Origin: Candidatus Altiarchaeota archaeon
GTDB lineage: Archaea > Altiarchaeota > Altiarchaeia > IMC4 > SCGC-AAA252-I15
Direction: 5' to 3'
DNA: 64,000 bases
Assembly: GCA_043800255.1 (NCBI GenBank)
Contig: JAZDNF010000001.1
Span: 128,001-192,000 of the forward strand
A program made the position numbers and the translations under genes. Positions 15,880-40,552 of this stretch are shown piece after piece. Each line of letters opens with the position of its first letter. Position 1 is the stretch's first letter. Under the pieces are notes generated by a model. The model was not told where the DNA came from and made no database searches. It saw only the letters and a list, made by a program, of their open reading frames with translations.

Positions 15880-15901
15880 ATGCGTGATTTCATATTCTAA
15901 C

Positions 15902-16240
15902 ATGTCCAAGGCGAATCCAAGCAAGGTTCAATTGGCGTTTACCTCCATACTCCTTCTCATAGCCTTATCCAGCATAGTATCCGCTCAATCATGGGTTACG
16001 GCTGTTTCGAGCATAGTCTGCGGGCTTCTGGTTGACGCCCTCAAGAACATCGTAGGAGCCTTGGCTGCCGTGGTCTTCGTATATTCCGGCGTAGAATACG
16101 TCATCTCCCAGGACGATCCAGGAAAGAGGAAGAATGCCAGGGACATGATGATATACGCATTGGTCGGTATCATCCTGGTTGGAATTGCTGCTACGATAAT
16201 CGGCGCTGTCCCGGGTTTCACAGGCTTGGGGTGCACATAA
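15902..16240 (+). CDS. TrbC/VirB2-like pilin 1
   Basis: Signal peptide (VSA-Q), IVC, hydrophobic helix, GVEYVISQDDPGKRKNARD, helix, C-terminal Cys. Confidence 0.75.
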   Translation: MSKANPSKVQLAFTSILLLIALSSIVSAQSWVTAVSSIVCGLLVDALKNIVGALAAVVFVYSGVEYVISQDDPGKRKNARDMMIYALVGIILVGIAATIIGAVPGFTGLGCT

Positions 16241-16242
16241 AA

Positions 16243-16644
16243 ATGAGAAGGGCAAAATTGATGTCAGATATTTTCGAGAACATGAGATTATTCGAGAACG
16301 TAAACAAGATACTTGTCGTGTTGTTTGTTTTATCAACTCTGACCCAGGGTCAGATGTCCTCCTCCAGCATATCCTCACCAGTCAATGAGATACTCTGCAT
16401 GATTTACAACGGCATATACCAGATTGCGGCTTCCCTTGCTGTGCTGGTTTTCGTGTTCGCTGGGGTCAAGTATGTTTCATCCATGGACGACCCTGGCAAG
16501 AGGAAATCAGCCAAGGATACCATGATAGCTGCCATAATCGGGTTAATAATCGTTTCAATCGGCAAGGCTCTCGTCAATCAGGTTCTCGAGAGCGTGTTGG
16601 GCTCAGGCTACAGCGTATCGTCTGCGTGTCTTGACTTCACTTAA
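16243..16644 (+). CDS. TrbC/VirB2-like pilin 2 (start may be 16261 or 16282)
   Basis: ILC...GVKYVSSMDDPGKRKSAKD...AIIG...SAC. Confidence 0.75.
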   Translation: MRRAKLMSDIFENMRLFENVNKILVVLFVLSTLTQGQMSSSSISSPVNEILCMIYNGIYQIAASLAVLVFVFAGVKYVSSMDDPGKRKSAKDTMIAAIIGLIIVSIGKALVNQVLESVLGSGYSVSSACLDFT

Positions 16645-16648
16645 GATT

Positions 16649-16990
16649 ATGAAGCCTTCAACTCAATTGAATAGAACTTGTGTTATATGCGCGCTTGCAT
16701 TTCTTGCGGTTCTAATATGCTCAGCAGACGCTCAGACCATAACGCCCCAATCCATATTCGTCCCAGTCTCGTCCATCGTATGCACCTTCAGGAGGGCGAT
16801 AGTTGAAATAGTGGGCGCCCTGGCATCGGTCATATTCGTGATATCCGGAATACGGTGGATATGGTCCCAGGACGACCCAGGCAAGAGGAAATCCGCAAAG
16901 GATGCGATGGTTCATGCCATAGTCGGCCTGATAATAATCGGGGTTGCGGATGAGATTGTTCAAAGCTTCAATTTCGTCGGGTGCACTTAA
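16649..16990 (+). CDS. TrbC/VirB2-like pilin 3
   Basis: ADA-Q signal; IVC...GIRWIWSQDDPGKRKSAKD...AIVG...GC. Confidence 0.75.
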   Translation: MKPSTQLNRTCVICALAFLAVLICSADAQTITPQSIFVPVSSIVCTFRRAIVEIVGALASVIFVISGIRWIWSQDDPGKRKSAKDAMVHAIVGLIIIGVADEIVQSFNFVGCT

Positions 16991-16992
16991 AG

Positions 16993-17337
16993 ATGAAATC
17001 AACAACGTATCTGGTGCTGTTGGCGGTATTGGCGGCCGGCATTACGGTCGCGCAGACAATGTCGTCTGATGTCATCTCCGACCCGGTGCTTGCGATAGTG
17101 TGCGGCATATACAACGCATTCAGAACGATAGGCGTCACCATCGGAGGCCTCGTATTCTTATATGCTGGCGTAAAGTATGTAACTGAGAGCGACGATCCCG
17201 CGGCAAGGAAGCAGGCCAGGGACATCATGAAGATCATGGTAATCGGGATTGGCATAATCCTGCTCGCAGACGTGACAATATACACCGTAGGCGGCACTGC
17301 CCTCTCAAACTCGTGCGTACCCTACATTCCAACATAA
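16993..17337 (+). CDS. TrbC/VirB2-like pilin 4
   Basis: TVA-Q signal; IVC...GVKYVTESDDPAARKQARD...SC. Confidence 0.75.
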   Translation: MKSTTYLVLLAVLAAGITVAQTMSSDVISDPVLAIVCGIYNAFRTIGVTIGGLVFLYAGVKYVTESDDPAARKQARDIMKIMVIGIGIILLADVTIYTVGGTALSNSCVPYIPT

Positions 17338-17338
17338 A

Positions 17339-17689
17339 ATGAAAACTAAGGCCCTTATCCTGGCAGGCTTCATTTTGCTGGCTGCGCAAACAGTCTCATC
17401 TCAGACCGTCGGGACATCGCTCACGAATGAGATATGGAGCTATGTAAAACCGGTAGTATGCGGACTATTCGTCGGTTTCACCCTGATAGGAGGGTCTATT
17501 GCAAGCGTTATGATAATCTACGCCGGCATAAAATATCTGACATCAGCCGATGACCCAGCGGCTCGGAAGAATGCGAAGGATATGATAACCCATGCGATGA
17601 TAGGAATCGTAATCATCCTTATCGCCAATTTTATCGTGGCCACGGTAACCCAGGGCGAGTTTTTCGGGTGCCAGTACTGGACATTCTAA
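17339..17689 (+). CDS. TrbC/VirB2-like pilin 5
   Basis: VVC...GIKYLTSADDPAARKNAKD...AMIG...GC. Confidence 0.75.
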   Translation: MKTKALILAGFILLAAQTVSSQTVGTSLTNEIWSYVKPVVCGLFVGFTLIGGSIASVMIIYAGIKYLTSADDPAARKNAKDMITHAMIGIVIILIANFIVATVTQGEFFGCQYWTF

Positions 17690-17690
17690 A

Positions 17691-18035
17691 ATGAAAATTA
17701 AGGTAACTAAAGCCCTAGTGATGCTCGGATTAATGGCCCTAGTTGGTCAGGTTGCCGCTCAGTTTCCTGTTTACTCGCTTGACACGCTTATCTACACACT
17801 CACGGATCCTATACTCTGCTCGATTTACAACGGCTTTAAGATGATAGCAGGCGGGCTTGCTGTCGTTATGCTGGTTTTAGCTGGAGTTAAATGGATGTCT
17901 GCCGCAGACGATCCCCCAGCAAGAAAAGTCGCGAAGGACATGGTGATACACACTGTAATTGCCCTTATAATAATCGTGCTCGCGACTTTGATCGTTGATA
18001 TAGCGTCCGGCGGACAGCTGACGGCTTGTCCATAG
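17691..18035 (+). CDS. TrbC/VirB2-like pilin 6
   Basis: VAA-Q signal; ILC...GVKWMSAADDPPARKVAKD...AC. Confidence 0.75.
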   Translation: MKIKVTKALVMLGLMALVGQVAAQFPVYSLDTLIYTLTDPILCSIYNGFKMIAGGLAVVMLVLAGVKWMSAADDPPARKVAKDMVIHTVIALIIIVLATLIVDIASGGQLTACP

Positions 18036-18055
18036 CATCTAATAGCGGATGACCT

Positions 18056-18385
18056 ATGAAAAAGAACGCCCTAATCCTAATACTTTTTTGTTATATGACG
18101 TCCGGAATTTTCGAGTACGCCGGCGAGATTTCTTCACAAATATCGACGGTATTTGAGACTTCGTTCTGCACAGTATACACTGTGATATGGTACCTTGCAG
18201 GAGTCCTAGCATCCGCCATTATCGTGGTTCAGGGCCTGAAGTGGGTGGAGGCTGACGATGACCCCGGCCAGAGGCAGCGTGCTAAAGAGACGATCGTGAA
18301 TGTGATATACGCTCTGATCTTCATAATCATCGGGAAGATACTCGCAGAGCTGATTATCGGCGAAACTTTCAACTGTGCGCCCTAA
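18056..18385 (+). CDS. TrbC/VirB2-like pilin 7
   Basis: SFC...GLKWVEADDDPGQRQRAKE...NC. Confidence 0.72.
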   Translation: MKKNALILILFCYMTSGIFEYAGEISSQISTVFETSFCTVYTVIWYLAGVLASAIIVVQGLKWVEADDDPGQRQRAKETIVNVIYALIFIIIGKILAELIIGETFNCAP

Positions 18386-18389
18386 TCCC

Positions 18390-18397
18390 TTTATTAA
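18390..18397 (+). promoter_or_regulatory. Putative TATA box for pilin 8 (leaderless transcript)
   Basis: TTTATTAA in an AT-rich spacer, 23 nt before ATG 18421. Confidence 0.45.
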
Positions 18398-18420
18398 TTT
18401 ACAATTAGAATCTGTATAAC

Positions 18421-18756
18421 ATGAGGCGGTTAGCTGTCCTTATCCTACTCCTTCTCATCGTTTCAACTGGCGGATGTGTAACAGACGATTTTGATACGTT
18501 CATAGCGGACCTCACAACGCTTCTGGAAGAGATGGCGCAGATGATATGCGACCTGAACGAGGCTGTTCAGCTGATCGTGGGCGTCGTAGGCTCTTTTGTA
18601 ATAGTCCTCGCAGGCCTTAAATGGGTTGGATCGCAGGACAACCCCCAGGAAAGGACTAAGGCTAAGCAGATGCTTCAGGCGGTAGTCGTTGGTTTCGCAA
18701 TAGTGGCGTCAGCGACTTTTATAGTCGAATTTGTACTGGGAAGCAGCTGCATCTGA
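18421..18756 (+). CDS. TrbC/VirB2-like pilin 8 with lipoprotein-type signal
   Basis: MRR-hydrophobic-TGGC lipobox; MIC...GLKWVGSQDNPQERTKAKQ...SC. Confidence 0.72.
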   Translation: MRRLAVLILLLLIVSTGGCVTDDFDTFIADLTTLLEEMAQMICDLNEAVQLIVGVVGSFVIVLAGLKWVGSQDNPQERTKAKQMLQAVVVGFAIVASATFIVEFVLGSSCI

Positions 18757-18761
18757 GCCGC

Positions 18762-18769
18762 TTTATATA
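18762..18769 (+). promoter_or_regulatory. Putative TATA box for pilins 9-11/trpA
   Basis: TTTATATA, 23 nt before ATG 18793. Confidence 0.5.
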
Positions 18770-18792
18770 CGTTCAAAAGAAGTTATATAACA

Positions 18793-19116
18793 ATGTCCGC
18801 CAGTAGCAAGGCCATCCATCTGACTTTCCTCATATTGTCCGTATCAGGGAGCGTTTCAGCTCATCCTCTCACGGATTCGATAGCTGACAACCTGTGCATG
18901 ATATTCCAGGCCATAATCCTCATGACCGGCGTTATAGCCGTTCTCATGATCACGATAGCTGGCATGAGATGGATAGGTTCCGAGGACGATCCAGCTGCCA
19001 GGCAGAAATCAAAGGAGCAGGTTGAGAGCATAATAGTCGGGCTGATTATCGCGGCGGCCTCTATCGGCACTGCTGCTGTCGTGACCGGTCAGACTCCCTG
19101 CGTGTGGCCGATATAA
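18793..19116 (+). CDS. TrbC/VirB2-like pilin 9
   Basis: VSA-H signal; NLC...GMRWIGSEDDPAARQKSKE...IVG...PC. Confidence 0.72.
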   Translation: MSASSKAIHLTFLILSVSGSVSAHPLTDSIADNLCMIFQAIILMTGVIAVLMITIAGMRWIGSEDDPAARQKSKEQVESIIVGLIIAAASIGTAAVVTGQTPCVWPI

Positions 19117-19117
19117 C

Positions 19118-19405
19118 ATGGTTAACGTAGATTTTACGCCGGCACTGAAGTACATATGCGTGATGTCATGTTTCATCAGGCTTGTTGTCGGCCCGATAGC
19201 GGTCCTGATATTGTCTCTTGCAGCGCTACACTGGCTTAAGTCCGAGGACAAGCCAGACGAGAGGAAGCAGTCCAAGCAGCAAATGAAGAACGTGCTGGCT
19301 GGTATCGTAATCATAACCATAGGTTACATTGTGGTTGAGGCAATCTTAGGCTCGGCTTCCATGGTAAACTGTGATGCGGTAACAGGTAACGCATGTCCAG
19401 TATGA
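19118..19405 (+). CDS. TrbC/VirB2-like pilin 10 (no evident signal peptide, 4 Cys)
   Basis: ICVMSC...ALHWLKSEDKPDERKQSKQ...NC...AC. Confidence 0.65.
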   Translation: MVNVDFTPALKYICVMSCFIRLVVGPIAVLILSLAALHWLKSEDKPDERKQSKQQMKNVLAGIVIITIGYIVVEAILGSASMVNCDAVTGNACPV

Positions 19406-19716
19406 AAAAGATCACAATTGTCATAGCAGGCGTGTTGTCAGCCGGCTCAGCGGCTGCGATAACCGGATTGCAACTTGTGCAACCCGTCTACGATGTTGTC
19501 TGCCTTTTTAAGGATGCTGTTGAGAATACCATAGGCGCGTTAGCCGCCATTCTTTTCGTATATGCTGGCATAAAATGGATAACCTCCGAGGAGGTGGAGG
19601 AGCAATTGCACGCGAGGGACATACTGGTGTACACTATAATCGGGCTGATACTGCTTGGGGTTATTGGAGGCATTACGCGCATACTCTTCCCAAATGTAAT
19701 CCTATCGTGCATTTAA
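19402..19716 (+). CDS. TrbC/VirB2-like pilin 11 (acidic loop)
   Basis: VVC...GIKWITSEEVEEQLHARD...IIG...SC; ATGA overlap with pilin 10. Confidence 0.7.
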   Translation: MKKITIVIAGVLSAGSAAAITGLQLVQPVYDVVCLFKDAVENTIGALAAILFVYAGIKWITSEEVEEQLHARDILVYTIIGLILLGVIGGITRILFPNVILSCI

Positions 19717-30468: not shown

Positions 30469-33400
30469 ATGGAAATCCCCGCAGGCTGCAAGTCTTCAGG
30501 GAGCCTGAGTCTCCTAAGAAAATACTGTTCTGTCCTCGCACTCATTCTACTCTACCTAATATCTCCTGCTCTGGCTGAAACCACTTGCGAGGTTACTCCC
30601 GACAGGGTGTGCGGTGACGGCGACCCATGGTATGGCACAATACTCATAAACGCGGAGGGAAACTATAATTCGGCAGGTTCGGCGGCTGTTGACATTAACA
30701 ACAATGTAATGAGCGGCGCCTCAACTTCAGACTGTTTTGTTAAAATCGTTGCAGTGCAAAGCGACGGCGACTCATGGTGCCTAACCCCCGCTGGCGTTGC
30801 GTATGCCTGTCCTAGCATGCTCAACCTGCATGTAGCTAACTACTCTGAAGCGTTCTCTGGCGAGTACAGCGTACTCGGCGACCCTATACTATATATCAAT
30901 CCTTCGACAGGGGTGCCTGACCCTGACAACGGAAACTATACTGTCGTTGACGCGGACTGGGAGTTTGTAGGGATAAACGAGTCTCATGAGGTTTCCGAGA
31001 TTTACAACATACGGAAGAGGGAGGAGCCTGATTTTTCGGTTGTGAAGAGGATTGTCGTTTACACTCTGGTCAGAGGGTGTGATAACATAGAGTTGATAGG
31101 CGGGATAAACTGTAAGAATGAGAAACTCACCCAGGTTGACTATGACGTATTGGGCGGGGAAGCCGATACCGTCTACTATAAGAACCTACAGAATCGCGGC
31201 TACACGCCGTGCGAGTATTTTGTGATAGACTATGGCAAATTCTACCGGTATCCTGGAGTCTATTTCGTCCTGTTGAACAAGTCCAAGTTCGGCTCTAACA
31301 GGGGGCTTAGCTACTATAGCATAGTGGGGCAGGAGGATTCGCGTAGGGGCATAAGCCGCCTCTACGAGGAGTCCATACGCTCGCATGAGTTTTACGATCC
31401 GTCTGATCGTGTATGCTGCAGGTATTCCACAGCAACTGGGGGGGTGAGCAACTATAAATGCGTCAGCTATGAGCAGTGCGAGGCTTGCGCATTCGGAACA
31501 AGCTGTTCTGAGGTCGCTCCGAGCTACTGTGCGGACCAGACGCCTATCTGCTGCGGTATGGACTGCAGTTCTGGCGACTTTAGGGAGTTGAGGAGCGTTT
31601 ACAATTCCATTCTTATCTGGAATTGGGAGGCCGGTCCTAGAGTGGTCGGTTGTGATCTCTGCGGGCCAGGTAACGTGACCTGCTCCATGGGGAGCTCATT
31701 GTCTGCGTATTACGCCCACCCGAGCAAGAACATCAGAATATATCCTCCATATTATCCTGATAGGTACTGCGGCTACTACTTCGAGCCGCGACAGATGATT
31801 GGCACGTGTGACTGCGTCACGGGCGAGAACTGTGGAGAAGACGACTGCGCGAGATGCTCTAGGATGGGCTATGGTTGCAGGTGGGATACTGCAGGAATAA
31901 ATGAGTGCTTAGGGTGTCACTATTCCATAGAGCCCACTGCCCAACCTGACCTTAAGTTGATCGACAAATCTGTCAAGAGTATTGAAACGGCTCTAAATGA
32001 GACTTTCATAACCTGGAGCGAATGGTGGTGCAACTCATGCGGCAAGAACATGCAGGGGGGCAACGATGGCCCGTGGGGGCTGATACAGGGCGAGGGTGCG
32101 ACATGCATGGGACTGGACAATGATACGACAATACCCTGCTCGTTATACGACTGTAAGGTGCCTTGGAATTGCTCTGACCCCCAACCAGTCGGCAATAATT
32201 GGAATTACCCCAGCAGGGGGGCTGGCGTCGGCTACATATACTATATTGCTCAAGGCAGCAGAGACTATGGTGATTATCTTACCGATGTCGATCCGACAAA
32301 CTGTTCGGACTATGTTACAGACAGCGACCCCCCATACTTTCTGAACGACAGATATTCTAAATGCTACAACGACGGAAGCACCTGGAAGTGCAACTGCACC
32401 CGCCCTGAGCACGTCCCGAAACAGCACACTCCCTGCGAATGTCCATCCGGCAGTTATGACTGCTGCATAGAGTACGTCGACTACGATGATGCGCAAACCT
32501 TCCTAATAAACGAGGAAAAAGCGGTGCCATCACCGTGTGCTCCAAGCCCTCAGGGCTTGCACTGTTATTTCTACGGTGAAGAGGAGGCAGGCGCCTCAGA
32601 GTGCACATGTGAAATGTCATTGGGAACATGCGACCCGCCTGACGGCTACTGTTCAAAAAACGCGGGAGAAACGCCTGTGACCTGCTCTGCGGACTGCAAC
32701 AGCTGCGATCCAAAACCGTGCAATGATAATGCAGTGTGCGAGCCTAACGAGCACTACTCCTGGTGTGATGACTGCCTCTGCGAGGACTCAAGCGATGGTT
32801 GCGATTTCGGTTCGGACGATGAGAATCCACTTTTCTGCATAGCAGACGTCTACATCCCCCAGTATACCGGAGCGGCACCGCCCGTGAATCCGAGCACAGG
32901 AAAAGCTGTCAACAAATTCAACAGGTGCCCATGCGGAGACAATAGGTGTTCTCCGATATTCAACGAGAACAACGAGACATGCCCAAACGATTGCGGATAC
33001 CCCCCAAGCGTTGTAGGCGACGGCGTCTGCTGGAATAGAGATGGGGCGACCGAGAGCTGGATGAATCAGGGGCCCACCTGCTATGCTTTCATAGGGAACT
33101 GGGCTGACGGTTGCGCGACCGTGGACTGCCCCCTCCCGCCGGGGGAGAACGGTGATGGGGTCTGCCAGTTCTGGAATGGAGAATGGCAGGGCGGCGAAAG
33201 CGAGGACATGGAAGTAATCGACAGCTCCGCCGACTGCAGTGGGAGCTACGATTGCTGTGTGCCGGCTGACGTATATTGTGACGATGACGGAGTCTGCAGG
33301 ACCGACAGACGAGAGGGAGAATACAGCGCGTCATATCCTACTCCCCAGACCTGTGCTGACTGCCAGGGCTGTGACACAACATGCAACGACGACGGCCATT

Positions 33401-36400
33401 ACGAGTACACGTGTTGTGAATACTACTGCTGGGACGGCATCGGAAACTGTAATGTTCCATGCTCCGCTGGAGACCCTGACGTCTGTTCCTATCAGAATCC
33501 AGTGTCATGTGGCGCAAGCGACCCAGACCAGTGCCCGACTTCGCCTCAGTGGGTCGGTTGCGACCCAGGCGAGACCAGTACGAACTGTCCCAATGACTGC
33601 AAGGATAGTTCAGTATGCGATGGGGACGGAGACTGCGAGCCATGCTACGGTGAGAATACCGCAAATTGTGGTTCAGACTGCAAGCCAAGCGGGGCGTGCA
33701 TTGTGAACGGCATCTGTGAGCCAGTGTTCGGCGAGAATCTGCAAACATGCCCGCAGGACTGCCCGGTAACGGTCAACAATCCAGGAGACTGCGGTGACGA
33801 AGTATGTTGGTGGGATGTTTTCGGGTCACCCGGAAGTTCGCCGCCAGCCTGGGAGACTCATGAGAACTGTTGGGACGAGGACACCAAAACAGGCGACTGC
33901 CCCCACCCGCCGGGATGGTGCGGGGACTTTGTATGCTGGCCGTATCCTCCATTTATTGATACATCAAGTACATGTCATACTGACTTGGATGGCCCAGGAT
34001 ACGAGACTGACTACTGCTGCCCGCAGGACTGCGACCCGCAACCTTATGATGGTAATCACGTCTGCGAGCCTACTGAGAACTGCCAGGATAACGAGAATGA
34101 CTGCCCCTTCCCGCCAGCCAAGGACGTTAACAATGCCCCAAGAGATGATGATATCTGCCAGTGGTGGGCTGGGGAGACCCCGGCGGATGATGATGCATGC
34201 GACCCTCCGACGGTGGGCGAGTTGCAGTACGTCTGCAAGGGCACCCCGCCACGATGCTGCGCTTGCCCGGACGTTTACACGTCATCAGCATTCGACCCTT
34301 CATACTATAGGATGTTCACGAGGGATAGCATCTGGACGAAGACGTTCAAGATGACGCCTGAGGTGTCTAATTCAACCCTAAGGGATTGTACAACAGAGCT
34401 CTCGTGCCTCGAGGCGAAGAATCTTTACGGCCCAGCTGGCAGTCCAGGCGCATCATGCTGGGAGAATGCATCCAACCTGGTTTGTGACGGATGCTACGGC
34501 GGTGGGACAAACTGCAAGAACTGCAACGGCAATGACACCTACAAACAGCCGGTAACACAGTGCGGCGACTACACGATAAGCGCAGACGAGTGCATGGCAG
34601 ACCCGTGCGGGGCGGCGACCGTTGCCTCAGGCATAAAATACGGTGGCTGCTTCAATCCAGGAGGAGGATGCACGGACTGCTATACCATATGGGGTCGGGG
34701 CTGCTCCGCGTATGCTGCAGACCAGTGGAACTGCGAGCACGATCCTTGTGACATCGAAAACTGCGCCTGGAACAAGGCAGCTGGCCAGTGCCAGGATGTC
34801 GGGGCTTCACAGTTGTATTGTGCTGACGTGTGCCCGCCGGGTACGTGCTTTGAAGACGAATGCATAAAGTCGTCGAAACTGACATTGGACGGGTGCATGT
34901 TCACCTCTACTGGCCTGGGGTGTGTAAGCTGCGATGATGTCAGGTCGTGCTCTGATGTTGCAAAAGCCTCTTGTAAGGCTAACACATGCCGTGATCTCAA
35001 ATGCTTTTGGGACAGCACAGACAATCGCTGCAAGGACTGTAGAGGCGTCATTCACACGGAAGGATGCGCAGGATACGCGAACATCACAGACTGCATCGAC
35101 AACCCCTGTGGTGTGGTATCAGGCTGCGCCTGGGGCGAGGAGGACAAGTGCATTGACTGCTCCCTTATCAACTCATGTCAAGATTACCTTAAACCTTGCG
35201 GTCCTTTTACCGGAATCGGATGCAGGTGGGCACCTGACGAAAGTTGTACGGACTGCTATCCTGACGATCCATTGGGCCTGAAGGCATACGGAGCAGCATG
35301 TCATACTGACCCCTGCAACGTCGGACCCTGCGGGATGGTTGACACAAACCCTGGTTTTGGCGAGACATGGACCTGTATGCCGCGAGGAGAATATAAACTT
35401 GGGTGCTATGAGGCCGTCTACAGTGCCGCTGTTGAGGATGAGAAGATGCTGTGCAGCCTGAATGCGATGAATCTCACACCCGGAGGGTGCTACTGGGATC
35501 TGGAGGATGAACGATGCTACAGCTGCTACGGTCACGATGCATTAGATTCTGATGCGTCAGACAACGACAACTATCCTGTACCTGCGTGCGAGAACTATGA
35601 CCGGGGAAGAGAAGGGGACAACGTAACCTGCCTTGATGACTGGTGTGATATTGGACCATGCTACTGGAACAACACTAGGCTGAGCGGAGACCGCTGCAAA
35701 AAGGCGTTCTCGATAAAGCCTGCGGCAGACCAGACCGGCTGGATAAGAAGCGGAGGCAAGTCAGGCGAGCTTAGCCCGAATGAAATAGACGCCAACGCCG
35801 GCGGAGGCCCATTCTGGGTCCATGCTGGCGGCGGGGCTGACATACCAAATCTAAGCGAGGCATGGGGTAATACTCCCCCTTACCCGCCTAATCAGGCATT
35901 CTGTGCAGACTACCGGGAAGGCTCAATATGGTCTGAGCTGAAATCGTACTATACTGTGAGGAGGAACTATTGTTACAGCGTTCAGGATCCTGTCTTGAAC
36001 GCCTGCGATCCAACTACTACAACCTGCGCTCTAGGCGGTGTCGGAGGTGCAGGATGGTATGGGGAAGCAGGAGTTCAAGCGGAGAACCTCAATAGCAGAC
36101 GGCCCAGAAAGCCTGTGGGGGCTCATGGTGGCGATGGCGTTGATGACCCGCCATACGTTTGCGGCACGATGTGCGGCAAGTATGTAACGCCCTACAGCGA
36201 CCCCTACTCTCCGCCAATATTGTCGACCACACGGTGGCCTCACCCAGACGATTACTTCAACCCTTACATGTGGGCTTGGTTTAACCTGACGGTGAACGAG
36301 ACCGATCTCAGCGGCGTCAATGAGATGACAATCACCGACGTTTATGTCCGCAGCACATCCCTGAGGGCAGACAGCCGCGGGATAGAGACGAGAGGCGGGC

Positions 36401-38421
36401 ACTATGGGCCCAACCTGCAGGGGAACATACTCCCCCGGCCCAGCCAACCTTATACAATATTCAACTGGTTTAACATGCCTGAAACGACATCGGACGGTTA
36501 TACCCTAGAGGATGATACTGCTAACATCTCAGTCAGAGGGAATTACACGGCGAATATGACCCTCTTCAGGGAGGATAAGGCGCTGCAGTGCGCATGGGAC
36601 AGCTGCCTACCGCGGTCAGGGGTAGAACGAGACAGAGTATACCAGGATTCTTGCTCACATACTTCGCCATGCAGCGGCTGCTGTACCAGTTGGAGCGGCC
36701 CAGGTTATTGTGGGATACCTGGATGCAGTCCAACCTACTCAGACCCATGCGGCCACTCAGGGCAGTATGCAAACAAGTGGGAGCACTGTGAACAGTGGCA
36801 GGCGCAGTTAGTGGACTCCAATGGCAATGGCGTCTGCGATGCGGGTGAGTATTACAATTGCCAGTGTTCGTCTGAAACGTACTATTACCGCTGCATTGCC
36901 TGCTGGCTGCATGAGGATTGCAGCTATCCAATTGGCCCGAACGATTTCACGAGCATAGCCAGCAGCCAGGAGAACGTTACTGACACATCATCGGTCCAGG
37001 CTGATCCCTACGGAGAGAACCTGACAATATCCCCCCCTCTGTCAGGCGATACTAGTGTCAAAATAACGGTTGGGGGATACGTTGACACCAAGCAGAAGGT
37101 CGGAGCGTCAGGCGTCATCCAGATATCAGGCGAGCCTGACATAATAAGTGGTTTCACGCTCCTCGTGCCTGATGTAATACGATTAGAGCATATCACAAAA
37201 CAATACCCTGCAGAGCATATGCTCACCAGGCTCGCAATTGCAAGCTCATGGGATGATTGCCCAACCGCTAGCTCAGACCTAACGTGCAAGGACGATTCCG
37301 GGACAGATCGTACCATAGCCTGCAACGACTATAAGCAGTACAATATTCTGGGCGCAGGTGAAAATGAAAACCAGGTTCTAACCTGCCTTGACACGGCATC
37401 GAAGAGGGAGATAAGCAGGTTCATACCCTTAAGAGATCCCCAGTGGGCTTACCTGTATCTCATCAACAACCCCCTTAACAAGTACTACTACTTTGTCGAC
37501 CGCTATGATGCAACAGACAAGAACTACACCTTCAGGGTCGATGTTGTAGGATTAAAACCCGGCTTAGTTGGCGGCGTAAGCATCGTGAAATGGGCCGATG
37601 CCGCGAAGAATGTCGGCACGTTCAGAAATTATCACGAGGACGAGAGGTTCTACTACGATCTGGCAGACCTCTACCGGCAGCCCCGCGATTACAATGTCGT
37701 GCGTCTGGAAGCACTGCCTGAATTGGCCGACTCGCCAGTCCAGAGAAAGACGAATGTTGATACCATATCCTTGGACTTCATGACGACTATGAACGGAGAG
37801 GTATTCTACAATCCATCAGACAAGTCATATACTCTGGAATTCTGGTCAGATAACATAAATGTCTCAGACTTCGGGTATGCCAAGCTCATAATCTTTACAA
37901 ACTACCGCAACATCGAGATTCCCCTCGTAAATGCGGTCACAGTAGGCGGAGTCACATCAGCGGTGATTCACAGGATTCCTGTTACCATAACCTGCAATCC
38001 GTGGAAGGCTGACGCCTTCACAACAGTGGACTTCTCATGCACTATTAACGCAGCAGTTCCGAATCCTGTCATGGAACTGCGCTTCGACGCCCCCTACTCC
38101 CAATACTCAGGAAGATACATGTCAGGTCAGGTGATACCCCTAAAGACGGACCGGTCAAGCATAACAGTCAAGGCGAAGTATGACGGTAACTACAATGGCG
38201 GCCCGAGCCAAGCATATTCCGGCGCGGAACTGATACACCGCACGAATGTGACCTCGAAGGGCGCGTTGCTTTTCCTGCTGAGGAACATACTGGTGCTGAT
38301 ACTCGCGTTCTTCGTGATTGTCGGCTACAGGTGGTTCATGAAGAACAGGCTTGACTTTGAGATGATGATAAAAGAGTCTGGAATATACGAGGCGCTGGAG
38401 GACTTTTTGGGTTTGAAGTAG
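30469..38421 (+). CDS. Giant (2650 aa) Cys-repeat cell-surface protein, signal peptide and C-terminal TM anchor
   Basis: Signal (ALA-E), two classes of Cys repeats, many N-x-S/T sequons, C-terminal hydrophobic helix and short tail. Confidence 0.85.
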   Translation: MEIPAGCKSSGSLSLLRKYCSVLALILLYLISPALAETTCEVTPDRVCGDGDPWYGTILINAEGNYNSAGSAAVDINNNVMSGASTSDCFVKIVAVQSDGDSWCLTPAGVAYACPSMLNLHVANYSEAFSGEYSVLGDPILYINPSTGVPDPDNGNYTVVDADWEFVGINESHEVSEIYNIRKREEPDFSVVKRIVVYTLVRGCDNIELIGGINCKNEKLTQVDYDVLGGEADTVYYKNLQNRGYTPCEYFVIDYGKFYRYPGVYFVLLNKSKFGSNRGLSYYSIVGQEDSRRGISRLYEESIRSHEFYDPSDRVCCRYSTATGGVSNYKCVSYEQCEACAFGTSCSEVAPSYCADQTPICCGMDCSSGDFRELRSVYNSILIWNWEAGPRVVGCDLCGPGNVTCSMGSSLSAYYAHPSKNIRIYPPYYPDRYCGYYFEPRQMIGTCDCVTGENCGEDDCARCSRMGYGCRWDTAGINECLGCHYSIEPTAQPDLKLIDKSVKSIETALNETFITWSEWWCNSCGKNMQGGNDGPWGLIQGEGATCMGLDNDTTIPCSLYDCKVPWNCSDPQPVGNNWNYPSRGAGVGYIYYIAQGSRDYGDYLTDVDPTNCSDYVTDSDPPYFLNDRYSKCYNDGSTWKCNCTRPEHVPKQHTPCECPSGSYDCCIEYVDYDDAQTFLINEEKAVPSPCAPSPQGLHCYFYGEEEAGASECTCEMSLGTCDPPDGYCSKNAGETPVTCSADCNSCDPKPCNDNAVCEPNEHYSWCDDCLCEDSSDGCDFGSDDENPLFCIADVYIPQYTGAAPPVNPSTGKAVNKFNRCPCGDNRCSPIFNENNETCPNDCGYPPSVVGDGVCWNRDGATESWMNQGPTCYAFIGNWADGCATVDCPLPPGENGDGVCQFWNGEWQGGESEDMEVIDSSADCSGSYDCCVPADVYCDDDGVCRTDRREGEYSASYPTPQTCADCQGCDTTCNDDGHYEYTCCEYYCWDGIGNCNVPCSAGDPDVCSYQNPVSCGASDPDQCPTSPQWVGCDPGETSTNCPNDCKDSSVCDGDGDCEPCYGENTANCGSDCKPSGACIVNGICEPVFGENLQTCPQDCPVTVNNPGDCGDEVCWWDVFGSPGSSPPAWETHENCWDEDTKTGDCPHPPGWCGDFVCWPYPPFIDTSSTCHTDLDGPGYETDYCCPQDCDPQPYDGNHVCEPTENCQDNENDCPFPPAKDVNNAPRDDDICQWWAGETPADDDACDPPTVGELQYVCKGTPPRCCACPDVYTSSAFDPSYYRMFTRDSIWTKTFKMTPEVSNSTLRDCTTELSCLEAKNLYGPAGSPGASCWENASNLVCDGCYGGGTNCKNCNGNDTYKQPVTQCGDYTISADECMADPCGAATVASGIKYGGCFNPGGGCTDCYTIWGRGCSAYAADQWNCEHDPCDIENCAWNKAAGQCQDVGASQLYCADVCPPGTCFEDECIKSSKLTLDGCMFTSTGLGCVSCDDVRSCSDVAKASCKANTCRDLKCFWDSTDNRCKDCRGVIHTEGCAGYANITDCIDNPCGVVSGCAWGEEDKCIDCSLINSCQDYLKPCGPFTGIGCRWAPDESCTDCYPDDPLGLKAYGAACHTDPCNVGPCGMVDTNPGFGETWTCMPRGEYKLGCYEAVYSAAVEDEKMLCSLNAMNLTPGGCYWDLEDERCYSCYGHDALDSDASDNDNYPVPACENYDRGREGDNVTCLDDWCDIGPCYWNNTRLSGDRCKKAFSIKPAADQTGWIRSGGKSGELSPNEIDANAGGGPFWVHAGGGADIPNLSEAWGNTPPYPPNQAFCADYREGSIWSELKSYYTVRRNYCYSVQDPVLNACDPTTTTCALGGVGGAGWYGEAGVQAENLNSRRPRKPVGAHGGDGVDDPPYVCGTMCGKYVTPYSDPYSPPILSTTRWPHPDDYFNPYMWAWFNLTVNETDLSGVNEMTITDVYVRSTSLRADSRGIETRGGHYGPNLQGNILPRPSQPYTIFNWFNMPETTSDGYTLEDDTANISVRGNYTANMTLFREDKALQCAWDSCLPRSGVERDRVYQDSCSHTSPCSGCCTSWSGPGYCGIPGCSPTYSDPCGHSGQYANKWEHCEQWQAQLVDSNGNGVCDAGEYYNCQCSSETYYYRCIACWLHEDCSYPIGPNDFTSIASSQENVTDTSSVQADPYGENLTISPPLSGDTSVKITVGGYVDTKQKVGASGVIQISGEPDIISGFTLLVPDVIRLEHITKQYPAEHMLTRLAIASSWDDCPTASSDLTCKDDSGTDRTIACNDYKQYNILGAGENENQVLTCLDTASKREISRFIPLRDPQWAYLYLINNPLNKYYYFVDRYDATDKNYTFRVDVVGLKPGLVGGVSIVKWADAAKNVGTFRNYHEDERFYYDLADLYRQPRDYNVVRLEALPELADSPVQRKTNVDTISLDFMTTMNGEVFYNPSDKSYTLEFWSDNINVSDFGYAKLIIFTNYRNIEIPLVNAVTVGGVTSAVIHRIPVTITCNPWKADAFTTVDFSCTINAAVPNPVMELRFDAPYSQYSGRYMSGQVIPLKTDRSSITVKAKYDGNYNGGPSQAYSGAELIHRTNVTSKGALLFLLRNILVLILAFFVIVGYRWFMKNRLDFEMMIKESGIYEALEDFLGLK
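32629..34104 (+). repeat. Protein-level repeats, type 1: C(G/D)DGxC...E...CPxDC (about a dozen degenerate copies)
   Basis: e.g. CGDNRCSPIFNENNETCPNDC, CDGDGDCEPCYGENTANCGSDC, CIVNGICEPVFGENLQTCPQDC. Confidence 0.75.
34561..35697 (+). repeat. Protein-level repeats, type 2: C..Y....C..DPC...C.W.....CxxC
   Basis: e.g. CSAYAADQWNCEHDPCDIENCAW, CAGYANITDCIDNPCGVVSGCAWGEEDKCIDC, CLDDWCDIGPCYW. Confidence 0.7.
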
Positions 38422-38425
38422 GAGC

Positions 38426-40552
38426 ATGAAAAACCACAAATCATTAGGGTTGGCGGTTCTGGTTTTAGCGATAGTGCTGACTGCACAGCCTGTTGAAGCG
38501 GCTGTAAGCGACACGCTGTTCTATTTCCTGAACGAGATACTCAAGCTGGTAGCTCTCCTTTACAAGCATTTGATAGTGCTTGCCGGCCAGATTCTCAAAT
38601 TATACGTTGATGTCATAGAGCAAAGCCTGCTCGCAAACCCTCAGATATACCCTCTGAAGGACAGTGCAGGAAATCTTACGACAAACGGCGCGATAATAGC
38701 AGGCTTCCTGAAAATACTCGCTCCAGTTTATTTCATATCACTCCTCCTGACGGGCCTTTACATGATTTTCATGGCAGAGTCTCCTTCGGGGAGGGCGAGC
38801 GCCAAAAACAACCTTGACAAGCTTCTTGTCTCGATGATTCTGGTCGCTGTTTCGCCAGGCCTATACCAGATATTAGTGGACATATCTCAGGTTACAACTA
38901 ACGGCATCCTATCCGTTGTCAGGACAACGCTGGCGGAGGATGAGACAATGGCAGATGCCATATACTCCTCGTTGATGAGCGCACCACCCCAAACGCAACT
39001 GATGATGCTGCCGATATTCATGATCGTCCTGTGGATTCTCGCAATAGCGTTGTTTGTGATGTGGTTCAGATACCTTATCGTGCTCGTGTTCGGCCTGATC
39101 TTCCCGATAATAATATTCCTCTATCTGTTCGGGTTCACCAAGACATTCGGCGCGAAGATGATGAGGTTCGCTCTCGTCTGGATATTCACTCCAGCATTGA
39201 GTGCGCTGTGGCTTGCCATCTCCATATTCCTCCTCACAGCATCGGCGTCGGAGTCGTTTACAGGAGGCCTGGTCACGCCATTCCTCTTCGCGACGAGCAT
39301 GTTCCTGATATCAATAGCTCCCCTCGTGATGAGCGGCCTCATGGCGTGGCTCGGCGGCCTGATTGCGATGGCAGGGATGATGATACCCGGAGGGTGGGGG
39401 ATAGCATTGGCAGCCATAGGAGGCGTAATGCAGGGCAAGGATCTGGGATCGATAGCTGGTTCCACAATAGGATTAGAGCTCCAATTCCACAAGTTACTTG
39501 GGAAGGGCATGGCCGCGGCCGGCCAAAAAAGCAGGGGCGGCGCATTCGGAGCGTTGGGTATGGGAGGAAAGGGCGCGAGCGCGGCTGGTAGGGCTACCGA
39601 AGCCGGTGGCAAGGCAGTCAGTGCGGGTGGGAAGGCAGTTGGTGGCGCATTTCAGGCTGCAGGCGCAGCCGTTGGTGCAACTGGAGTCGGAGCTCCCATC
39701 GGGGCAGCATTGGCTGGAATCGGCAAAGGAATATCAGCAGGCTCGGAGGCAATCGGTAAGGGGATTGAATTTGCAGGCAAAGGTATGAAGGCTGGAGGCA
39801 GTGCAATGGAGTCTGCCCGCGGCAGGCACCTGAAGGCGGCAGGCAGGGGCAAAATAACAGAAGCCAAGGGCGCGAGAGACAGGGCGAAGTCCTTGCAGGC
39901 GAGGGGAGACAAGCTTAAGAGCGGCGGGTTTATGTCGCAGGTGAGGGCTAAGGCTGGCATGTATGACACTCGTGCTAAGTTAGCGGAGAGGAAAGCAGGC
40001 AAACTGAAAGATAAGGGAGTGAGCATGCGGAACAAGGGCAAGGGCATCATAGCGGAAAGCAAGAAAGGCGCTCCTGGCCTGAACTTTGGGGACACTAAGC
40101 TCGGCCAGAAGATGAAGAAAGTGGCTGATGTCGCGAAAACTGCAAGAGGGGCTGTCGCCAGCAAGAGCCTGAGGCTGACATCGTTGGCCGGCGTTGACAG
40201 GGACACTGCCAAGCTTCTGAGGACAGCTAACTATAAAACGAAGGGCGCGGTTGCGAAAGCCAGCGTAGGAGATCTGCAGAAGGCCGGCCTCAGTGCAAAA
40301 CAGGCGGAAGACGCTTCTAAGTCTGCGAGGAGCCATGTCGCTGGAGAGAGGCAAAAAGGCGCTGGCACGGACAGAGAGCCTTCAACCGAGGATCGTATTA
40401 GGAAGGGCATCAAAGATGACAAGAGTGACGATGCTGATAAGAGAAGGATGGACGAAGTCCAGCTTAAGAGCCAGCTCGCCAGCCCAGGCAGGAGATCTCG
40501 TGATAGGGGGCAGAGGACAGATGACATCATAGACGGCATGGACGCCGAATGA
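38426..40552 (+). CDS. VirB6/TrbL-like polytopic membrane protein with Gly/Ala-rich linker and HhH-like domain
   Basis: Multi-TM core with FRYLIVLVFGLIFPIIIFLYLFGFTKTFG...WIFTP pattern; TrbL-like G/A-rich region; HhH-like segment near the C-terminus. Confidence 0.65.
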   Translation: MKNHKSLGLAVLVLAIVLTAQPVEAAVSDTLFYFLNEILKLVALLYKHLIVLAGQILKLYVDVIEQSLLANPQIYPLKDSAGNLTTNGAIIAGFLKILAPVYFISLLLTGLYMIFMAESPSGRASAKNNLDKLLVSMILVAVSPGLYQILVDISQVTTNGILSVVRTTLAEDETMADAIYSSLMSAPPQTQLMMLPIFMIVLWILAIALFVMWFRYLIVLVFGLIFPIIIFLYLFGFTKTFGAKMMRFALVWIFTPALSALWLAISIFLLTASASESFTGGLVTPFLFATSMFLISIAPLVMSGLMAWLGGLIAMAGMMIPGGWGIALAAIGGVMQGKDLGSIAGSTIGLELQFHKLLGKGMAAAGQKSRGGAFGALGMGGKGASAAGRATEAGGKAVSAGGKAVGGAFQAAGAAVGATGVGAPIGAALAGIGKGISAGSEAIGKGIEFAGKGMKAGGSAMESARGRHLKAAGRGKITEAKGARDRAKSLQARGDKLKSGGFMSQVRAKAGMYDTRAKLAERKAGKLKDKGVSMRNKGKGIIAESKKGAPGLNFGDTKLGQKMKKVADVAKTARGAVASKSLRLTSLAGVDRDTAKLLRTANYKTKGAVAKASVGDLQKAGLSAKQAEDASKSARSHVAGERQKGAGTDREPSTEDRIRKGIKDDKSDDADKRRMDEVQLKSQLASPGRRSRDRGQRTDDIIDGMDAE

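Follow-up and report, generated by a model that had tools for sequence, protein, structure and literature searches.

What a helix-hairpin-helix (HhH) fold of the recombinase type contributes to the end of a channel-like membrane protein is the question raised by an intact open reading frame (ORF) of 708 codons (38426..40552, + strand) in a 64,000-nucleotide stretch of chromosomal DNA from a Candidatus Altiarchaeota archaeon (the window; positions 128001-192000 of contig C8, in a genome of 1.75 Mb on 17 contigs that is 93% complete). Its product, P0001, is a VirB6/CedA-like membrane protein of 708 amino acids (aa), the channel-like part of which is followed by a long polycationic tail carrying a RadA-derived HhH module. 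The VirB6 fold and the HhH fold are each already known, and it is the subunit joining them that is new; a literature search for 'VirB6' with 'helix-hairpin-helix' retrieved only an unrelated review from 2009, judged by its title. Of the core components of type IV secretion, those of the VirB6 type are understood least, and for the archaeal Ced and Ted systems the way in which DNA encounters the channel is described as unclear in the text available of PMC11868833. In this respect a VirB6-like protein whose polycationic tail bears a recombinase-type fold represents a natural experiment, pointing to a possible DNA cargo.

Domain architecture of P0001

The protein is divided into the following segments, all encoded on the + strand:
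38426..38503, signal peptide (aa 1-26) with basic n-region, hydrophobic core and a cleavage site predicted from the sequence between VEA and A
38504..39430, VirB6/TrbL/DotA-like polytopic domain (aa 27-335), supported by an AlphaFold2 (AF2) fold and structural matches
38681..38929, pilin-like helical hairpin within the latter (aa 86-168), with the conserved cytoplasmic loop SPSGRAxAK and a weak T4SS_pilin match
39431..39835, Gly/Ala-rich basic linker (aa 336-470; 50% Gly + Ala, 67/135; 16 Lys + Arg versus 6 Asp + Glu)
39836..40168, Lys/Arg-rich linker (aa 471-581; 27% Lys + Arg, 30/111; 9 Asp + Glu)
40169..40345, (HhH)2 domain of the RadA-N-terminal type (aa 582-640, 59 aa; hairpins A-G-V-D and A-G-L-S; net charge +6)
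aa 641-680, charged spacer
40466..40549, conserved C-terminal peptide (aa 681-708; LKSQLASPGRR..GQRT.DI.DGMD.E)

The succession of a Gly/Ala-rich and a Lys/Arg-rich linker agrees with what a first-pass annotation of this DNA had described. The former is modelled with pLDDT values below 40, and the latter is weakly conserved (26% identity between P0001 and its relative P0003, with 28 gap columns). Overall, the tail (aa 336-708, 373 residues) contains 74 Lys + Arg, 38 Asp + Glu and no Cys, amounting to a net charge of +36. The basic n-region of the signal peptide is a family trait, the first 10 residues containing 3.4 Lys + Arg on average.

An (HhH)2 domain of the RadA-N-terminal type

The first-pass annotation had assigned the residues LTSLAGVDRD...KSAR to a double HhH of the RadA-N/NusA type. 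These 52 residues correspond to aa 584-635, exactly window 40175-40330, and the assignment is borne out by superposition on the RadA N-terminal domain, followed by that on NusA AR2. In structural alignment, aa 582-640 show the five-helix double helix-hairpin-helix fold and constitute a real (HhH)2 domain. While the full-length AF2 model of P0001 is poor (pLDDT 51), aa 583-640 are its best part (block means 64-83), and with all 708 residues as query Foldseek placed Methanococcus voltae RadA first (56 columns, root-mean-square deviation (rmsd) 0.7-0.8 Å, 36% identity, prob 1.00), at an E value of just 0.19-0.25. RadA N-terminal domains were aligned by VIA-align with Z 10.0-10.7 and rmsd 1.9-2.6 Å over 59-61 residues (33-36% identity), the best superposition reaching Z 10.7 at 2.1 Å and 36% identity; NusA AR2 ranks behind RadA with Z 8.8.

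Sequence comparisons point to the same relative. By BLASTP, 19 of 54 residues (35%) are identical between the HhH domain and residues 1-54 of the genome's own RadA (pairwise E 2e-6), a 309-aa protein encoded 41 kb upstream of the P0001 gene on the same contig. Besides the domain itself, the N-terminus of this RadA is its sole tblastn match in the whole genome (36.5% over 52 aa, E 7.5e-4). An origin of the domain from a source other than RadA was also considered; of the eight HHH_5 matches in the genome, just RadA is detectably similar by tblastn. The search with Pfam HHH_5 (PF14520) that the first-pass annotation had called for returned a match to P0001 (aa 583-628, E 3.1e-4), which at 21.6 bits lies below the cut-off of 27 bits, and a six-frame scan of the whole genome gave 26.0 bits (E 2.4e-5), still under 27 bits. 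NCBIfam RadA models, which are equivalogs, match aa 580-639 with their first 63 positions (E 0.004) and far below their full-length cut-offs. Among PDB chain sequences, the HhH piece alone found only Pyrococcus furiosus Rad51/RadA (E 0.81) and IcmE/DotG repeats (E 2.2), and the whole protein had no relevant match (best E 2.5).

In fold, length and identity (33-36%) the domain thus resembles the (HhH)2 domains at the N-termini of RadA/RAD51 (PDB 3ntu, 1t4g, 1pzn). The consensus of HhH hairpins is G-h-G. Hairpin 1 of P0001 reads G-V-D and hairpin 2 G-L-S, compared with G-V-G and G-F-S in the genome's own RadA, so that a second hairpin of the form G-h-S is common to both. P0001 differs from RadA in lacking the ATPase core, in the net charge of the domain (+6 versus -6), in its first hairpin (G-V-D versus G-V-G) and in being tethered to a membrane protein.

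A further weak HHH_5/RAD51D_N-type domain is found on contig C2 (L045:4381-5880, minus strand) at aa 336-385 of a 500-aa protein otherwise without Pfam matches, the gene of which is separated by a 210-aa ORF from one for a HerA helicase.

A VirB6-like membrane domain

The proposal of the first-pass annotation that the N-terminal part is a VirB6/TrbL-like membrane domain also held, on the level of fold, DotA and TrwI/VirB6 being the top structural matches. An AF2 model of aa 1-350, built with an alignment of 89 rows (A2), has a pLDDT of 92 and a pTM of 0.83. With Foldseek, rows 1-4 and 6 are TrwI/VirB6 chains of plasmid R388 (E 0.064-0.14, prob 0.99-1.00, TM 0.44-0.49 on the target, about 255 columns), headed by 7o3v_F (E 0.064, prob 1.00, 254 columns). 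In a Foldseek-independent search of 48,161 chains, DotA came out on top (Z 8.4 over 234 residues), with TrwI/VirB6 next (Z 7.9 over 226 of 261 residues); chains further down mostly align over some 50-70 residues of the hairpin and a few over 100-177. A second structural comparison gave Z 9.7 over 242 residues for TrwI. Such Z values are in the middling range for helical proteins, and weight is therefore given to rank and aligned length, which together with independent Pfam and context evidence led to the assignment as VirB6-like. As modelled, aa 27-335 form a polytopic domain of the VirB6/TrbL/DotA type.

On the sequence level P0001 is a remote homologue. Pfam TrbL (PF04610; cut-off 25.9 bits) did not match P0001 at E <= 1, nor did it match at this protein in the genome-wide scan; in the absence of a profile match at cut-off, P0001 is filed as VirB6-like and not as a member of Pfam TrbL. 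A word-index search for homologues retrieved just 4 relatives, the family being visible only by profile search: a profile of the five closest proteins retrieved 345 cluster representatives with E <= 1e-3, of which 292 reach <= 1e-10 and 96 reach <= 1e-30. The best 150 of these 345 range from 270 to 2410 aa in length, and the 88 of them with up to 760 aa were scanned with Pfam. TrbL was found at E <= 1e-3 in seven of the 88, with P0104 over the cut-off (27.6 bits) and P0082 at it (25.9 bits). Additionally, 11 of the 88 have a weak T4SS_pilin match in their N-terminal hairpin, and six carry TPR or SNAP-type domains at the C-terminus. A match of the former kind is also present inside P0001 (C8:166699-166872, about aa 92-150; E 0.005, 18 bits). 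It fits the relatedness of CedA to CedA1 and of VirB6 to VirB2, and the likeness of the N-terminus of the channel protein to pilin, which are described in the text available of Beltran 2023 (PMC9905601).

In its fold P0001 is accordingly comparable to TrwI/VirB6 of R388 (PDB 7o3v, 8rt9; Z 7.9-9.7 over 226-242 of 261-272 residues) and, in the polytopic domain, to DotA of the Legionella Dot/Icm system (9ngy; Z 8.4), which is listed as the VirB6 counterpart of that system in a table of PMC12624023. The pilin-like N-terminal hairpin and the coexistence with VirB4-type and VirB2-type genes are further features shared with the TrwI/TrbL family. In contrast to TrwI, DotA and TrbL, P0001 is archaeal and chromosomally encoded, is one of five paralogues, has no direct Pfam match and possesses a polycationic tail of 373 residues bearing the HhH domain.

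A minimal type-IV-secretion-like machine

In total, five VirB6-like paralogues are encoded in the genome. The four besides P0001 belong to ORFs of 1749, 596, 1423 and 735 aa, the loci of which are:
contig C5, L015:5507-13041
contig C5, L016:3321-8602
contig C7, L017:4367-10855

The 596-aa paralogue matches TrbL (E 3.9e-4), and the 1423-aa paralogue has a C-terminal region resembling metallophosphoesterase/FBPase_2. The genome contains a single VirB4-like ATPase of 838 aa, encoded on contig C5 (P-loop_TraG, E 1.9e-27; AAA_10; DUF87). Matches to T4SS_pilin number 22, of which 18 are over the cut-off, and the window itself harbours an array of them:
15884..19716, + strand, 11 tandem genes for VirB2-type pilins (T4SS_pilin PF18895/TrbC), all 11 at E <= 4.5e-6

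The pilins of this array comprise 95-137 aa, those of the first three genes matching TrbC/VirB2 as well; a gene for a PMT_2-type glycosyltransferase and trpA flank the array. The VirB4-type ATPase and the VirB2-type pilins thus co-occur with P0001 on the level of the genome and not as neighbours. Beside the VirB4-like gene on C5, a gene for a 739-aa protein combining a pilin module with a thrombospondin-type-3 repeat was observed.

A coupling protein was not found in the 93% complete genome, the matches of PF02534 and PF10412 being confined to the Walker region in two HerA helicases; neither was a relaxase with PF03432, the sole relaxase family searched. Among 49 species genomes of the order (this one included), the membrane domain occurs in 47, with 1-16 matches each, and a VirB4-like protein in 45, the best match having 55-76% identity in most. 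As the VirB4- and VirB6-like genes recur across the order, the VirB2-, VirB4- and VirB6-like components are regarded as a vertically inherited, chromosomal and minimal set: the machine is a chromosomally fixed, type-IV-secretion-like one in which a single VirB4-type ATPase is combined with pilins of the VirB2 type and with VirB6-like proteins. No description of it was found for this lineage in a literature search, nor any paper joining 'Altiarchae' with 'VirB4'. Besides its single ATPase and numerous pilins, this machine, found in 45-47 of 49 species, includes several paralogues of the VirB6-like type and a Cys-rich giant as partner (see below).

The same minimal list of VirB2-, VirB4- and VirB6-like parts is that of the Ced/Ted systems (CedA/CedE of Sulfolobales, TedA of Thermoproteales), which are likewise chromosomal and in which, as here, no coupling protein or relaxase was found. 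Ced/Ted-type systems are described as devoid of both, and as import systems, in the text available of PMC9905601, and their lack here agrees with that; CedA and CedE are VirB6-like paralogues according to that of PMC11868833. The machine differs from Ced/Ted in belonging to another phylum, in its multiplied pilins (18 over the cut-off) and in the pairing of the P0001 gene with one for a giant Cys-rich surface protein. An HhH domain is not mentioned in the text available of Beltran 2023 (PMC9905601). A second likeness, drawn by description, is to the 'extended VirB6' proteins of Rickettsiales (Anaplasma VirB6-4), of which, as in the present genome, several paralogues with long C-terminal extensions occur per genome; they differ in being bacterial and part of an effector-secreting system, and no HhH is reported for them in the text available of PMC7648143.

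Distribution and history of the fusion

The HhH domain is carried by only 4 of 151 proteins compared (P0001 and the best 150 of the 345 family representatives), namely P0001, P0002, P0003 and P0012. In none of the order's 48 other species genomes was the fusion of P0001 detected; its tail there matches only ORFs of 312-338 aa, i.e. of RadA size, with 30-41% identity and in 10 genomes. Five loci were identified that share the gene order of the window, four from genome records (L018-L021) and one from a metagenome contig (L047). By local profile, the four syntenic orthologues of L018-L021 lack the HhH domain, and P0012, the orthologue of L047, has two HHH_5 domains (E 7.9e-19, 68.3 bits); of these the first, with a G-V-D hairpin, shares 36% identity with the domain of P0001. 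The same fusion, sought among homologues as the first-pass annotation had recommended, therefore recurs in P0002, P0003 and P0012, and was not found in the four syntenic orthologues or the 48 other species genomes. It is met twice among the positional orthologues of one conserved gene pair.

A maximum-likelihood tree was calculated from 30 membrane domains, rows 1-30 of the 89-row alignment A2, with a midpoint root chosen for display only. P0001-P0003 group together (100/100) within a set of orthologues without HhH (96/97), and P0012 stands on another branch; in the nearest orthologue clade, 8 of 11 members lack the domain. At least two changes are needed to account for its presence on the tree, either two gains or one gain followed by several losses. 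Between P0001 and P0003 the HhH segment is 48% identical with one gap, the flanks only 22-26% with many gaps.

Charge of the tail and membrane side

A polycationic, Cys-free tail of 240-395 residues is present in all orthologues examined. Net charges of the tail were +10 to +38 in 15 of 15 proteins measured, 14 of which are without Cys; its first 200 residues amount to +19 to +40 in 14 of the 15 and to +10 in P0014, which has a tail of 141 aa. The HhH domain has a net charge of +4 to +6 in four of five copies measured and of -1 in the second copy of P0012, versus -6 for the N-terminal domain of the genome's own RadA.

In the membrane domain, family-averaged Lys + Arg cluster at aa 116-132, in the loop that follows helix 1 (about 4 per sequence), as well as at aa 237-248 (about 3), while the N-terminal segment and the loops at aa 151-190 and 271-280 are acidic. 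This distribution follows the positive-inside rule and hence fits an N-out/C-in layout, in which the long helix of aa 188-234 counts as one crossing; within this helix R215 is near-invariant and P227 invariant. An outside tail is disfavoured, as the tails are strongly positive and Cys-free and the co-encoded surface giants are rich in Cys. The C-terminus of Agrobacterium tumefaciens VirB6 is cytoplasmic. The tail of P0001 is probably cytoplasmic, as the first-pass annotation had supposed for the HhH domain; the loop charges and the Cys-free tail of net +36 speak for this placement, and the ambiguity of aa 305-335 leaves the number of membrane crossings unfixed. The extensions of relatives gave no clue to the membrane side by their domain content: for 36 of the 62 long family members Pfam returned no domains in these C-terminal extensions at E <= 1e-5, and only three N-terminal pilin matches.

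Possible functions of the HhH tail

As the RadA-type fold has become basic here and is borne on a flexible polycationic tether beside a VirB6-type channel, a non-specific holder of nucleic acid is the simplest reading. P0001 would be one of five VirB6/CedA-type membrane subunits of the chromosomal minimal machine, its tail would hang in the cytoplasm beneath the pore, and the HhH module together with the tail would hold DNA non-specifically at the channel mouth during import or export, as in the DNA exchange by Ced/Ted. That P0001 is such a Ced/Ted-like channel subunit, tethering DNA at the pore, is put forward tentatively, as a real possibility. The polycationic tail, being common to all orthologues, may represent a general substrate-contacting element.

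Several observations weigh against this reading. The HHH_5 score of P0001 is under the Pfam curated cut-off in both scans; hairpin 1 reads G-V-D-R-D in the three close copies and G-V-D-K-N in P0012, an acidic residue replacing the phosphate-facing second glycine; and protein-binding HhH domains score only slightly lower in structural comparison (NusA AR2, Z 8.8; NusA AR1 with lambda N, Z 7.4). The fusion is rare (4/151), was found in none of the other 48 species genomes and hence does not belong to the core of the machine, and the P0001 gene lies 19 kb from the pilin array and on another contig than the VirB4 gene. A single crossing within aa 305-335, which are Gly-rich and form two short helices in the model, would place the tail outside, and only two hydrophobic helices of VirB6 reside in the membrane in the assembled R388 machine, as described in the text available of Mace 2022 (PMC9259494), which makes helix counting unsafe in the VirB6 family.

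The acidic hairpin residue and the structural neighbourhood would be accommodated if the HhH were a protein-docking module that recruits RadA, the VirB4-like ATPase or another cytoplasmic factor to the channel. Neighbours of the domain include NusA AR2 with SuhB (6ib8_C, Z 7.7), NusA AR1 with protein N (1u9l_B, Z 7.4) and the N-terminal lobe of RAD51 with a histone tail (8xbw_L, Z 7.7), and its nearest relative is the N-terminal domain of RadA itself. However, the shift in charge from -6 in RadA to +4 to +6 and the polycationic tether suit a polyanionic ligand better than the acidic, protein-binding NusA type does, and no partner was indicated in the analysis; docking is considered unlikely. 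An inverted topology, with the tail outside the membrane and the HhH acting as a receptor that captures incoming double-stranded DNA for an import machine, is rather improbable. The extracytoplasmic HhH pair of ComEA in bacterial competence provides the precedent, an additional crossing at aa 305-335 would suffice, most hydrophobic VirB6 helices are outside the membrane in the assembled R388 machine (per the text available of PMC9259494), and Ced and Ted import DNA (per that of PMC9905601). Yet export of a segment of net +19 to +40 (14 of 15 proteins) would contradict the positive-inside rule, the tail contains 0 Cys compared with 86-120 Cys in the co-encoded surface giants of related loci, and the Pfam match is to HHH_5, the RadA type, and not to the ComEA family.

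The patchy distribution could also mean that the HhH is a lineage-specific acquisition of little or no function, a RadA-like piece captured into a fast-evolving low-complexity tail: the four syntenic orthologues and 8 of the 11 proteins in the nearest orthologue clade lack it, none was found in the order's other 48 species genomes, and the surrounding tail is weakly conserved. The retention of 48% identity between P0001 and P0003 amid gap-rich flanks of 22-26%, the confident folding of the domain and the presence of two such domains in P0012, a positional orthologue on a separate branch, make this hardly probable. The same distribution speaks against a more far-reaching role suggested as a possibility in the first-pass annotation, i.e. 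that the HhH replaces a coupling protein or relaxosome. This suggestion finds no support here: nearly all of the 48 other genomes keep VirB4 and VirB6-like genes without the fusion, the four syntenic orthologues do without an HhH, and the domain supplies neither ATPase nor nickase activity.

A bolder extension of the DNA-tethering reading is that the order-wide machine is a DNA-exchange apparatus, the polycationic tail of P0001 its substrate tether and the HhH a recombinase mimic holding and passing incoming single- or double-stranded DNA from the pore to RadA, in analogy to the hand-off from DprA to RecA in bacterial transformation. It is highly speculative and has a slim chance of being correct; if true, DNA import would be physically coupled to homologous recombination. 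For probing the idea of a DNA cargo, the HhH tail offers a small, expressible fragment.

Conserved gene pair and genomic context

The P0001 gene starts 4 nt past the stop of a 2650-codon ORF, and its 3' end abuts a convergent GATase (guaA-type) gene:
30469..38421, + strand, giant Cys-rich partner (2650 aa) with signal peptide, a single membrane anchor at the C-terminus and a short conserved tail

The giant protein matches no Pfam or NCBIfam family. Its C-terminus (about 38320-38418) ends in the highly conserved tail ...ESGxYExxxDFxGxK. In all five related loci a giant gene directly precedes the VirB6-like gene; the giants there comprise 2114-2286 aa with 86-120 Cys and have the same C-terminal anchor and tail, and the VirB6-like genes encode 660-743 aa. 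The order shared by the window, L018-L021 and L047 is acetolactate synthase small subunit, M50/CBS protease, giant Cys-rich protein, VirB6-like gene, convergent GATase and Trm56, the genes before the giant not being visible in L018, which is cut at its 5' end. Location of the VirB6-like gene on a mobile element was considered and rejected, as synteny among housekeeping genes is kept in the five related loci.

The giant protein may be an adhesin or tip partner of the P0001 paralogue, and the conserved C-terminal peptides of the two may contact each other or a common partner. A complex prediction of aa 2596-2650 of the giant with the last 68 residues of P0001, run without controls, gave a score of 0.00. 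The C-terminal peptide of P0001 (aa 681-708) is kept in five of five rows of alignment A1, with 71-89% identity to P0003 and P0002 (71% versus P0003), as well as in the orthologues of L018 and L019; those of L020 and L021 have a variant peptide, ...LNGMDDENMAEDEPSELA. It has no paralogue elsewhere in the genome and is absent from P0012. In a search of sequencing runs for the locus no RNA run matched, and one groundwater DNA run was found at a 0.15 share of words.

Overall, the window is a piece of archaeal chromosome with genes for the ribosomal proteins S27ae, S24e and S6e, the alpha and gamma subunits of eIF2, AglB/STT3, the primase small subunit and Trm56. As to the Gly/Ala linker, that of P0003 (aa 350-520) consists of a degenerate 7-residue repeat, AGGKAxx, with Lys/Arg autocorrelations of 0.51, 0.38 and 0.24 at lags 7, 14 and 21; in P0001 (window 39476-39835) the repeat is fainter, the autocorrelation being just 0.19 at lags 7 and 14.

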